Assembly (NCBI GenBank): GCA_031288595.1
Contig: JAITRB010000004.1
Coordinates: 44,931 to 76,930, forward strand
From: Puniceicoccales bacterium
GTDB lineage: Bacteria > Verrucomicrobiota > Verrucomicrobiia > Opitutales > JAIRLG01
Direction: 5' to 3'
DNA length: 32,000 bases
Shown here: piece after piece, positions 6,001-9,000 of the stretch
Position numbering within the stretch: the stretch's first letter is position 1
How the letters are laid out: every line of letters begins with the position of its first letter
Made by a program: the position numbers

Positions 6001-9000
6001 GCCGCAAAATTTCCTCCGCACATTCGCCCATAACCTGGACCGCTTCTCGGAAAACCCTTTTCCCATCCATGCGAAAAAAGTGTTCGCGCCCCTCCACGGT
6101 TTGCGGCGAGGCCGGTCGGCGAGAACCTCCGGCGGGCATGATGATTTGGTCGGCCCCCAGGCCATCGGCTCCGAGGAGAATATCGCTAATCTGCAATCTC
6201 AGCCCCTCTGGGGGAGAATTTCCCTCCGAATCCTCCGAGCGGCCAACGATGACAGCTCCGGCTCCATCACCCAGCAGGACGCAGCTGCTGCGGTCCTGCC
6301 AGTCGGTGACGGAAGACATCTTATCTCCGCAGACGAAGAGGATGTGGCGGCAATGCGGATCTCCCAACAGGCATTGCCGGGCCAGGTGCAAGCCATAGGG
6401 AAATCCCGAACAGGCGGCGTTGATGTCCAGAGCCGGAATAGGACGGCAATTCAGGCACCGTTGCAGGTAACAGGCCGTCGCCGGAAAGGGCGTGTCGGGG
6501 GTGATGGTGGCAACGAGAATCAGGTCGATGGCCTCCGGCCCGAGTCGGGCGGCCTCGAGGGCCCGGAGCGAAGCGTGATAGCAGAGATCGGAGCTCGCCT
6601 CTTCCTCCGACGCGATACGCCTTTCCCGAATGCCGGTACGGGTTCGAATCCACTCGTCATTCGTGTCCACCCGAAGGGATAGCTCGTCGTTCGTCAAGAC
6701 CTTTTTCGGCACGTAGGATCCCGTCCCACAGATGAAGATAGGCATGTGGGGTGCTTATGAAGCTCCTACAAGCCAAGTGGCAAGTTTTAACGTTCTATGA
6801 GTTCTAAATGGGGAGCGTTCCCTACGTGTTGGCTGGCTTTGCAAGGGACAAATGGCTTCTGCCATTTGTCCCTTGCGGCCCGCGCAGCGGGCCCGATGCT
6901 TTGCCTCGAAAGCCAGCCAACAAAATTAACAATTCACCCTTTCCCCAAAGAGATCGGGCCTCCGGCATCACTTCAGCAGGGACTTCGTCTGTTGGAGAAG
7001 CGCCATCTCCTCATCCTGCAGGCCCATTCGGGACAGGTCGGAGGCCATGTGGATGGCATGACTGATGGCCCGGGCACGGCTGGAACCGTGGGCCTTGAAG
7101 ACGGTGCCATTGAGGCCCAGGAGTGGAGCTCCGCCGTAGATCTCAGCATTGAGCTTGGCGCTCAGAGCTTCAAAGGCTCCCCGGGCACAGAAGGCACCGA
7201 AGAGGCGCAGAGGATTTTTGGAAAATTCTTTTCTGGAAAATTTTCTGAGATAGAGGGCCATCGATTCCAGCGATTTCAGGAGAATATTGCCCGTGAAACC
7301 ATCGCAGAGGACGACATCGACGCCGCTACCGAAGAGGTGGAAGCCCTCGATGAGACCGATGTAATCGATAAAGGACGACAGTTGTTTCAGCTTCTCGTGT
7401 GCCTTCTGGATGAGCTCGTTCCCCTTGCCCTCTTCTGTCCCGATGCTGAGCAGTCCGATCCGCGGCGAAGGGATTTTCAGCACCTTCTGGGCATAGACGC
7501 TGGCCAGCAGCGCATTGTGGGCTATGTGCAGTGGGGTCGATTGGGGATTGGCCCCCACATCGACCAGGACGAAATGACCCTCACTGGAGGGGATGATGCT
7601 GGCCAGTGCAGGGCGTTCGATGCCGGCGATGGGGCGCAATTTGAGTGTACTGCCGGCCATCAGACTACCGGTATTGCCGCAGCTCAGAACTGCGGATGCG
7701 GCACCGGCCTGAATGAGCTCGATGGCCCGAATCATGGAAGCATCCTTCTTCTGCTTCAGACTTTGAACCGGTTTATCGTCCATCTCGATGACCTGCGAGG
7801 TGTGGAAGATCGATAGCCTGGAGTTGTCTTCCAATCTGTGCTTTTCGAGAAGGGCCGTGAGCAAATCCCCGTCACCGACAAGGATGAGCGGGGCAAGGTC
7901 AGGGAATTGCCGAAGGGCCAGGCACACGCCTTCGAAAATCTCCTCCGGCCCACGGTCTGACCCCATCATGTCGATGGCGACGGCCCCATGGGCAGCGGGC
8001 ATGGACGGAGAGATTTTCGACATAGAATGCCCTAATCCAGAAAATTTTTCATGGGCTCCAAGCGTATAATGCCCTCAGTTCGGCGGTGAAAAACTCATCT
8101 CCACTCCGCCGTGCTCAAGGCCTGCCACCCGGCTCTCAGCTCACCTTGGGGTCGATGACCTGGCGACCGCGATAGACGCCCGTCGTCGGATGGACGTGAT
8201 GGGGAAGGAAAAAGCTGCCGTCCTGGGGATCCTTGTCGAACTGCGGCATCGCAAAACGATTAGCCCCGCGGCGTTTGCGGCTTCTCTGCTTGGACTGCTT
8301 GCGCTTTGGAACGGCCATTTTCGGAATCTACTGCAACCGGAATATATCTCCATACGCTGCGCGCCGGAGGCCCTGCGTCAAGAAATTACTGTAAAAATAA
8401 AAAGGACGGCCCCTGCCATTCCGAGTCCGTCCCTATGGGCGAAGGGCTGATGCGAGGATTCCCTGAGAATTTTTAGCGCCGCCCAAAGCGCTCATGAATG
8501 ATGCAGATTGTGGGAGCAGAGGATGGGCGAGGAATAACAGGAATTCCCTCATTTGAGGGGAAAGCATCGGCTAAAAATCCCTCCATCCTAAACCAGGATG
8601 GACCGTAAAGCTCAAATCCTCCTCAAATTCATTTCACCCGAGCTCTCCAGACTGAATGCTAGTACGAGAGAAGGTTTACGAAGCCTCTTCGGATGGGTTG
8701 CTCTTGGCCGCGGCCCTGGTTCGGGGTGGGAAGACGAAACGGAGCCCTCCATCGGATTTGAGGGCGAGCGTGGCGGCAAAGGGCTTGCCGGTACGGCGGG
8801 AAATGAAGCCCTCGATGAGTTCCGTCTTTTTTTTCTGAAGGAGCTGCCGTATATGCTCGGGAGCAATGGGCGCACCCAGCATCGTCTTAGCAATCCGGAA
8901 GCGACAGGCGGGCTTTTTCTCCGCAAAGGTCCGTTCGCAGAGGTAGTAGTTCTCGATTTCGAAGATGCGATTCCCCTCTTTGTGGAAGGGACAAGCACCG

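Follow-up and report, generated by a model that had tools for sequence, protein, structure and literature searches.

A 32-kb stretch of DNA from the metagenome-assembled genome of a Puniceicoccales bacterium (GenBank assembly GCA_031288595.1, 76.9-kb contig JAITRB010000004.1, positions 44,931 to 76,930), here called the window, harbors a 96-bp sequence between fabH and plsX (6827-6922) that folds into three hairpins inside one closing stem. Five further copies in the window follow the same plan. A first reading, made from the sequence alone, held that the bases next to the junction are conserved between the copies and that the arms are replaced by unrelated, perfectly complementary sequences. 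The locus therefore raises the question of how a fold is kept when the sequence that builds it is not. A comparison with related contigs suggests that the copies form, as far as searched, an undescribed family of interspersed palindromic DNA repeats of one uncultured Puniceicoccales clade. Their fold is under strong purifying selection, whole units appear to behave as mobile or excisable DNA, and exchange between the two arms may help to hold them complementary.

Element C and the copies of the family

The copy at 6827-6922, element C, is complete. The canonical order of the family (closing arm, short hairpin, core hairpin, long hairpin, closing arm) is read on its minus strand, and the element lies between the start of fabH at 6745 and the stop of plsX at 6968. 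On the plus strand it consists of the following parts:

6827-6840: closing-stem arm TGTTGGCTGGCTTT, which pairs perfectly with 6909-6922 over 14 bp
6841-6876: long hairpin GCAAGGGACAAATGGC-TTCT-GCCATTTGTCCCTTGC, with 16 perfect bp and a 4-nt loop
6877-6893: core hairpin GGCCCGC-GCA-GCGGGCC, more conserved than any other module of the family
6894-6908: short hairpin with a single G.A mismatch, CGATGC-TTT-GCCTCG on the plus strand and CGAGGC-AAA-GCATCG on the minus strand
6909-6922: closing-stem arm AAAGCCAGCCAACA

The canonical order is likewise on the minus strand in D and on the plus strand in A, B, and E. The other five window copies, located by an inverted-repeat scan and direct reading, are:

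2712-2813, plus strand: element A, 102 bp, between rpe and prmA, which forms 46 perfect pairs and leaves no base of the junction unpaired
3677-3774, plus strand: element B, between lptE and rpe, nearly a copy of A (9 differences)
13019-13115, minus strand: element D, between the convergent genes T2SSF and thrS, with a long arm of 19 perfect bp and an orthologue in the related contig L175
19070-19169, plus strand: element E, between an acp-like open reading frame (ORF) and an ABC ATPase gene, with a long arm of 22 perfect bp
28546-28663, plus strand: element F, of a second sequence family that follows the same plan of a closing stem and three hairpins

All six take on three hairpins inside one closing stem, with 0-3 unpaired bases at the junction. 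Folded as RNA, they have energies of -70 to -104 kcal/mol with z between -10.6 and -13.1, a stability matched by 0 of 200 shuffles. As DNA, the two strands of element C fold alike, at -47.5 kcal/mol (z -11.3) and -49.0 kcal/mol (z -11.8). When perfect multi-hairpin junctions are scanned for strictly, the window yields 4 and 1.82 Mb of other loci yield 0. The sequence-only reading had described 6827-6922 correctly, and all the arm sequences that it listed are found. When the five core-type window copies are aligned, GNCTTT...AAAGNC and the core are conserved. The junction motif of that reading is present with the exception of copy F, which has a one-base bulge and is devoid of the shared closing motif. 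The long-arm opening GCAAG/CTTGC occurs in three copies as stated (in B with one G.T pair, CTTGT). The core GGCCCGC/GCGGGCC is found as well, except that copy D reads GCCCGC; the core GCCCGCNNNGCGGGC has 5 occurrences compared to 0.37 expected. A and B, the most similar pair of the window, flank rpe in direct orientation, and in the more distant relatives an element stands on the prmA side of rpe only. A weak two-hairpin structure with an 8-bp closing stem at 20184-20235, within an ABC ATPase gene, is ignored by the covariance model described below and is probably due to chance.

Related uncultured Puniceicoccales contigs were retrieved through homologues of Rpe, ThrRS, and T2SSF. The close relatives are L170 (GCA_031259625.1), L172, and L175, with 81-91% DNA identity to the window over the aligned blocks. 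The more distant ones are L165/L166, L167, L168, L169, L171, and L174 (GCA_031255915.1), in which Rpe is ~60% identical. Within the genome collection, the PlsX of the closest species representative is only 54% identical. A covariance model trained on A and B recovers all window copies, including F, and 23 more in the related contigs. The family amounts to 29 copies in 107.6 kb (~1 per 3.7 kb), and three hairpins and a closing stem are present in 29 of 29; this copy set, from the ~108 kb of the clade that was read, is small and phylogenetically structured. Copies are 93-120 bp long and are built from a closing inverted repeat of 10-16 bp, a short hairpin of 6-7 bp with a 3-nt loop, the core GCCCGC-N3-GCGGGC, and a long hairpin of 13-23 bp with a 3-4-nt loop. 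Folded as RNA or as DNA, and from either strand, these parts give an almost perfect four-way junction.

Outside of these contigs the family was not met. The covariance model has 0 matches in 1.36 Mb from 80 other genomes, which include other Opitutales and Puniceicoccaceae. Nearby or foreign DNA, which had been considered as a source of the arms, contains no match to them: none is found elsewhere in the window (≤3 mismatches), and BLAST of the element against plasmids and phages gives no match. The pattern scan and covariance model yield one marginal match in viral contigs that is not a member. The metagenome pattern CTTTSGA..GCCCGCTNNGCGGGC returns 82 stretches, 0 of which form the junction on folding; this pattern is too narrow, and the relatives read CTTTGAGCCC.

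Compensated change and exchange between arms

The minimum-energy folds of the 29 copies contain 1273 Watson-Crick pairs, 18 G.T pairs (1.4% of 1291), and 61 interior or bulge bases; the six window copies account for 268, 4, and 3 of these, respectively. Covariation was counted column by column in the 25 core-type copies, with helices indexed from the junction and the 3' partners shuffled within columns. The fraction of Watson-Crick pairs in each helix is:

Closing helix: 0.972 (shuffle mean 0.555, shuffle maximum 0.62)
Short helix: 0.993 (shuffle mean 0.62, shuffle maximum 0.70)
Core helix: 0.988 (shuffle mean 0.68, shuffle maximum 0.78)
Long helix: 0.974 (shuffle mean 0.43, shuffle maximum 0.49)

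The copies are related, and hence the shuffles are not to be read as probabilities. The excess of compensatory change over the shuffled means (0.97-0.99 versus 0.43-0.68) is nevertheless large, as the covariation check proposed with the sequence-only reading had asked, and the number of independent double changes is large despite the kinship of the copies. Beyond the first pair type, 49 further Watson-Crick pair types occur in the long helix and 26 in the closing helix. For nine copies of one sub-family, RNAalifold predicts 40 pairs; in 5 of them both sides are changed, for example A-U in five copies and G-C in four. Among the unpaired cells of the 25 core-type copies, A.C is about as frequent as G.T. 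Strand-specific tolerance of G-U was considered as a test for selection on RNA and is, at G.T ~ A.C, uninformative either way.

Frequent unpaired substitutions in the arms are not seen in the close relatives. The statement that every arm is perfectly self-complementary comes near the truth in the window lineage, apart from the mismatch in C and the bulge in F, and fails in the more distant group, in which 12 copies hold 39 interior or bulge bases. A one-base bulge of the long arm is inherited there at different loci and in different genomes.

The orthologous copies illustrate how the arms change. Element C and L172 925-1022 differ at 8 positions. Four of these make up two compensated pairs of the long arm: one A-T pair becomes G-C and another becomes C-G, the latter being a double transversion with no wobble intermediate. 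One further difference restores the mismatch of the short hairpin, which is perfect in L172, and three are loop bases (3 of the 4 in the long-hairpin loop). Between D and L175 5324-5425, a T-A pair of the closing stem is changed to C-G with compensation, the pair at the foot of the core hairpin changes from T.T to C-G, and loop bases change, with the remainder of the 19-bp long arm unchanged. Across orthologues, unpaired bases change at ~25-30% (3 of 10-13) and stem bases at ~5-6%. In these orthologues both halves of an arm change together, mainly by double compensated changes, which answers one of the checks proposed with the sequence-only reading. The C and D pairs are ~92% identical, whereas the adjoining spacer is visibly far more diverged and rich in indels. 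The fold is under strong purifying selection, because changes in the stems are overwhelmingly compensated and because the orthologues are so much more alike than the gapped spacer beside them; the earlier suggestion of very strong selection on the fold is thereby directly supported.

The arms themselves are neither unrelated nor replaced, as had been claimed. They are homologous sequences that have diverged, and they group into coherent sub-families that different genomes have in common. Aligned from the junction, the closing 5' arms read ..G-Y-Y-G-N-C-T-T-T; position -6 is G in 19 of 25 copies in the minimum-energy register, and A is rare in this arm (6 of 321 bases). Purines account for 75% of the 5' arm of the long hairpin. 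The closing stem covaries with the long arm in sub-families that recur at non-orthologous sites across genomes:

GCTG(T/G)CTTT with (G/A)CAAG...: elements A, B, and C, L165 11929-12021, and L174 4071-4163
GCCGGCTTT with CCCGGA... and a GATTCC short hairpin: element D and L170 2423-2529
CCGCCTTT with GCGG..AAAAATGAAAGC: L165a, L167a/b, L168a, L169a, and four L174 copies

The closing stem TCCGCTGTCTTT is common to window copy B and L165 11929-12021. That of element F, GCGCGATGGCC, is common to L170 3617-3724 and L172 4618-4740, all three having the closing stem GCGATGGCC, and L170 6781-6888 has a third stem, GGCGATCC, on the same three-hairpin plan. At least three sequence-unrelated sub-families, with the closing stems ..GNCTTT, ..GCGATGGCC, and ..GGCGATCC, thus share the three-hairpin geometry. 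Between E (GAGGGGAAAGGGAAG) and L170 837-956 (GAGGGGCAGGGAAAG), indels are mirrored in the two arms, and each is perfectly paired. L170 837-956 additionally joins a 5' closing arm of the L170 4714 type (TTTGGGGCTGCCTTT) to the 3' arm of the neighbouring orthologue of E, L170 1094-1200 (AAAGGCGACC). Its closing stem is imperfect, and its core is swapped for a longer GC hairpin. This apparently chimeric makeup suggests recombination between copies.

Whole interiors and hairpin tips exist as flip/flop isomers, as the sequence comparison of two sets of copies shows. In the orthologous rpe|prmA spacer, L165, L168, L169, and L167 have homologous flanks, and the interior of the L167 element is reverse-complemented with respect to the others: compared to L165 it is identical at 72 of 80 positions as the reverse complement and at 35 of 80 on the same strand. 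Independently and at a smaller scale, the tip of the long arm is inverted: its 21 apical nt (ATG...CAT, with an asymmetric bulge and the loop TCCC or GGGA among them) read in three L174 copies as the exact reverse complement of the L165a type, and the rest of these elements is collinear. Inversion between inverted arms at two nested levels requires DNA-level recombination or template switching between arms. Quasipalindrome mutation through template switching is documented in Escherichia coli (PMC7202029). The exchange from arm to arm seen in the isomers, which is comparable to this process, may also help to hold the arms exactly Watson-Crick and would copy indels and transversions from one arm into the other. 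Such copying would fit the scarcity of G.T as well as the double transversion and the indels that are mirrored. The earlier suggestion that one arm is templated from the other is in this way supported indirectly, by the isomers, the mirrored indels, the transversion pairs, and the 1.4% of G.T, and not directly.

Gain and loss of whole units and their genomic setting

In a BLASTN comparison of the window with L170, the alignment breaks exactly at elements. L170 has inserts of 109 bp at window 18704|18705 and of 105 bp at 16731|16732, and larger inserts that contain elements at 15617/15618, 17661-17672, and 19174-19232. Altogether, 7 elements in 8.6 kb of L170 stand against 1 in the orthologous stretch of the window. 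No target-site duplication is seen at the two clean sites that are filled in L170 and empty in the window, 18704|18705 and 16731|16732. The 105-bp (35-codon) insert of L170, with its element at L170 4714-4810, follows codon 6 of trxB and is read in frame. The N-terminus of TrxB accordingly reads MFGAAFGFQRKRPAQRRAPPKPPEGASAQRQPQPEKLIIIGSG in L170 and MAQSEEEKLIIVGSG in the window, and the gene call is 354 aa instead of 316 aa, with ~34 residues predicted to be encoded by the element. Because exact units are present or absent, no target is duplicated, and one copy is inserted in frame, the elements, as judged from these alignments, behave as mobile or excisable DNA.

Other repeats occur beside the elements. 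Adjacent to the F-type element in the trxB-ruvB spacer, L170 3560-3616 (reverse strand) holds two 18-bp tandem units and a diverged third (TCTAGAYTATTATACTTA), apparently derived from the sequence after the trxB stop of the window (TCTAGATCATCC); the trxB stop codon of L170 is displaced. A 70-bp segment that is single in the window (8560-8629) is found twice in L172 (3242-3310 and 4379-4447), ~1.1 kb apart. The inserted region of L172 around it comprises two elements and otherwise short unannotated ORFs.

Short-read contigs end within elements. Logan contig L001 (window 3711-8034) begins in the core hairpin of B, the central palindrome of F contains the start of L164 (window 28582), L166 breaks off in the loop of an element's long arm, and the start of L167 falls within an element. 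Ends at such positions imply that the repeats break assemblies of this lineage.

The six window elements are all located in spacers of housekeeping genes, in the orders prmA-A-rpe-B-lptE, fabH-C-plsX, T2SSF>D<thrS, and ruvB-acp>E>ABC ATPase, with F upstream of tatD-gatB. They lie 27-103 nt past stop codons and are followed by AAAG.. on either strand. There is no tRNA at the window elements, and Rfam gives 0 matches at gathering score and only chance-level microRNA hairpin matches at E≤5. Intrinsic terminators were considered and rejected: no element is called as one, none has a T-run, and terminator-like sites number 17 compared to 19 expected. According to the gene tables, orientation relative to the flanking genes is sense in 12 copies, antisense in 6, and convergent, divergent, or unclear in 8.

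The unannotated ORFs near the elements have no Pfam match, and only ankyrin-repeat and PD-(D/E)XK proteins surfaced. In L166 (1730-3151), a 473-aa ORF without Pfam match and without flanking elements lies between plsX and fabH, the site of element C in the window. Ankyrin-repeat proteins, one of 674 aa and one of 1286 aa or more, are encoded between topA and T2SSF in L172 (7548-9572) and L175 (3-3860); the counterpart in the window, 11253-11665, is only ~400 bp, which makes this a presence/absence polymorphism. The large ankyrin-repeat proteins of the relatives hint at a host-associated lifestyle, a setting in which repeat families such as the Rickettsia palindromic elements (RPEs) are known to bloom (PMC10969869). 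A SUFU-like gene (PF05076) in L170 (1293-2093), between acp and the orthologue of E, is absent from window 19018-19070.

Explanations and relation to known systems

Our preferred explanation, held with moderate confidence, is a REP- or MITE-like family (MITE stands for miniature inverted-repeat transposable element) that is defined by its structure, in which the fold is selected, the arms exchange sequence at the DNA level, and a trans-acting factor reads the junction. Such a factor would recognize the conserved junction-proximal bases together with the geometry, and may be a structure-specific transposase or recombinase that acts on the folded strand or on a cruciform. A benefit for the host, e.g., mRNA 3'-end protection or processing, would be secondary. 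Several points weigh against this explanation. Neither a transposase, RAYT (REP-associated tyrosine transposase), recombinase, or parent insertion sequence nor, for the copies that look specific to the L170 lineage, a near-identical donor is found in the ~108 kb (the window and ~76 kb of relatives). Mobility is deduced from presence and absence only, and insertion and precise loss are not distinguishable at the individual sites. Elements are kept at the same intergenic site where Rpe is only ~60% identical; this persistence and the conservation above spacer both suit a function for the host no less well than selfish DNA. Arm conversion alone would not slow the evolution of the stems compared to the spacer, and selection is therefore needed besides arm exchange. 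The stably inherited bulges of distant relatives indicate that correction is not universal. Palindromes that run into the loops were considered as a mark of templating and dropped, since they occur in 11 of 87 loops, not above chance. A more novel and less probable reading can be put forward tentatively, by analogy with the reading of attC by IntI: the elements may be mobile DNA recognized by shape and not by sequence, with a structure-specific enzyme that reads the geometry of the four-way junction, in single-stranded DNA or in an extruded cruciform, along with a few bases next to it. Drift of the arm sequences would then be tolerated provided that pairing is kept, and flip/flop and arm-to-arm templating would belong to the life cycle of the element.

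It is doubtful that the elements are instead cis-acting RNAs, transcribed as part of operons or 3' UTRs, whose very stable junction blocks exonucleases, serves RNase III, or ends transcription, with selection acting on the RNA fold and DNA mobility being incidental. Nearly all copies are intergenic and, in the window, lie shortly (27-103 nt) after stops; convergent genes enclose several of them (D, the L175 orthologue of D, L167b, and two copies in L174), the loops are uniformly 3-4 nt, covariation is strong, orthologues are conserved above spacer, and RNA-level effects of this kind are known for REP and Correia elements (bioRxiv 10.64898/2026.03.23.713779; PMC10969869). Sense orientation is also somewhat commoner (12 to 6), and the near-identical fold in both orientations means that mixed orientation is not decisive against an RNA role. 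G-U is, however, nearly absent (1.4%), and in sense copies the unpaired cells are A.C as often as G.U, including two A.C in L170 2423-2529. Furthermore, the T-runs of terminators are missing after every element and terminator-like sites show no excess (17 versus 19), Rfam has no match, one copy is divergent-intergenic and one lies within a coding region, and at many sites an element is present in one genome and absent from another that is ~85-90% identical. A several-fold gap in density between close relatives (7 in 8.6 kb versus 1) makes it unlikely that the host maintains the elements as structural sites of the chromosome, at which a cruciform or lagging-strand fold would bind a nucleoid protein that recognizes junctions or hairpins, gyrase, or a Ruv-like factor, as proposed for BIMEs (bacterial interspersed mosaic elements). 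The perfect junction with its 0-3 unpaired bases, the equal stability on both DNA strands, the conserved bases next to the junction (GNCTTT/AAAGNC and the GC core), the retention at orthologous sites across deep divergence, and the Watson-Crick-only pairing would all suit such a DNA structure; the in-frame copy in trxB and the at least three sequence-unrelated sub-families that share geometry alone do not, and no candidate binding protein was identified.

That the elements are by-products of replication errors, with arms made de novo by fold-back or template switching and with neither selection nor common ancestry, is highly improbable. In its favor, the long stems are perfect in the window genome, indels are mirrored between the homologous arms of E and L170 837-956, and template switching can create or perfect hairpins (PMC7202029; bioRxiv 10.1101/2023.04.19.537475). 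A de novo origin is largely refuted by the sub-family structure, in which related arms occur at non-orthologous sites across genomes (TCCGCTGTCTTT, and the resemblance of D to L170 2423). The four-part plan and conserved junction bases of the 29 copies, the conservation of orthologues above spacer, the bulges inherited across copies and genomes, and the palindromes that halt at 3-4-nt loops also speak against it.

Among named families, the REP/BIME/REPIN repeats of Proteobacteria, which are mobilized by RAYT transposases of the HUH type, come close to the elements as high-copy, short, intergenic, GC-rich palindromes that occur in both orientations and as mosaics without target duplication (PMC3733652, PMC2817692). 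For both, a reading of folded DNA has been proposed, along with RNA-level side effects on neighbouring genes (for REP, bioRxiv 10.64898/2026.03.23.713779). A REP unit is a single imperfect palindrome of 20-40 nt with a conserved GTAG or CGTC at one end (PMC3733652). It has one hairpin, whereas the present family has a fixed set of three different hairpins in a closing stem and much more variable arms; there is no GTAG or CGTC at a fixed position in the 25 aligned copies and no gene for a RAYT (Y1 HUH transposase) in the window and the ~76 kb of relatives. MITEs (Correia/CREE, ERIC, RUP, and BOX) share the size of ~100-200 bp, paired terminal inverted repeats (TIRs), and presence or absence between strains. 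Inversion is known for Correia elements, whose TIRs, once paired, are a target of RNase III cleavage (PMC10969869). A terminal inverted repeat is present in 29 of 29 copies as the 10-16-bp closing repeat, with varying sequence. MITEs are, however, characterized by shared sequence, conserved TIRs, target-site duplication (TA in Correia), and a cognate insertion sequence, while the copies described here share only the geometry and a few junction bases and show no duplication at the two clean sites. Correia elements are marked by a conserved 26-bp TIR, a TA duplication, and an IHF site; here neither a conserved long TIR sequence nor a TA duplication is found.

RPEs, whose in-frame insertions are reviewed in PMC10969869, are likewise palindromic, ~100-150 bp long, and found in a host-associated bacterium both in spacers and as in-frame insertions in housekeeping genes, of which the L170 trxB copy is one case here. 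They are defined by a conserved sequence and an encoded peptide, and no four-way junction or hypervariable arm is described for them. The attC sites resemble the elements in that structure counts over sequence, with conserved bases at the base of the fold and a variable distal part, and the recombinase acting on a folded strand serves as a working model. They differ in their R and L boxes (RYYYAAC ... GTTRRRY), extrahelical bases, unpaired central spacer, and cassettes next to intI. The stems of the present elements are perfect and lack extrahelical bases, the closing arms do not fit GTTRRRY, and the neighbours are plsX, fabH, rpe, prmA, thrS, and ruvB. The inverted terminal repeat of parvoviruses such as adeno-associated virus (AAV) is T-shaped, with an outer palindrome around inner palindromes, and exists as flip and flop isomers. 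Mitochondrial double-hairpin elements and GC clusters are small, mobile hairpin repeats with conserved structure. The viral and organellar elements are an analogy only: their hairpin transfer is linked to replication, they have two inner palindromes or hairpins instead of three, and they show no sequence kinship (for the mitochondrial repeats, see PMC4478555). The family is not a member of any named family, because it has no GTAG/CGTC tag, target duplication, conserved TIR sequence, or known parent.

For Puniceicoccales, a practical consequence is that the elements break short-read assemblies and inflate gene calls and should be masked or modeled in metagenome-assembled genomes of this group. 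REP, MITE, and RPE repeats are normally defined by sequence, whereas the invariant here is the geometry of a three-hairpin four-way junction, kept across at least three sequence-unrelated sub-families though the arms differ almost completely. Filled and empty sites, compensated orthologues, and isomers make the family a tractable system in which to ask whether selection or arm templating maintains complementarity, and what reads a folded DNA junction in bacteria.

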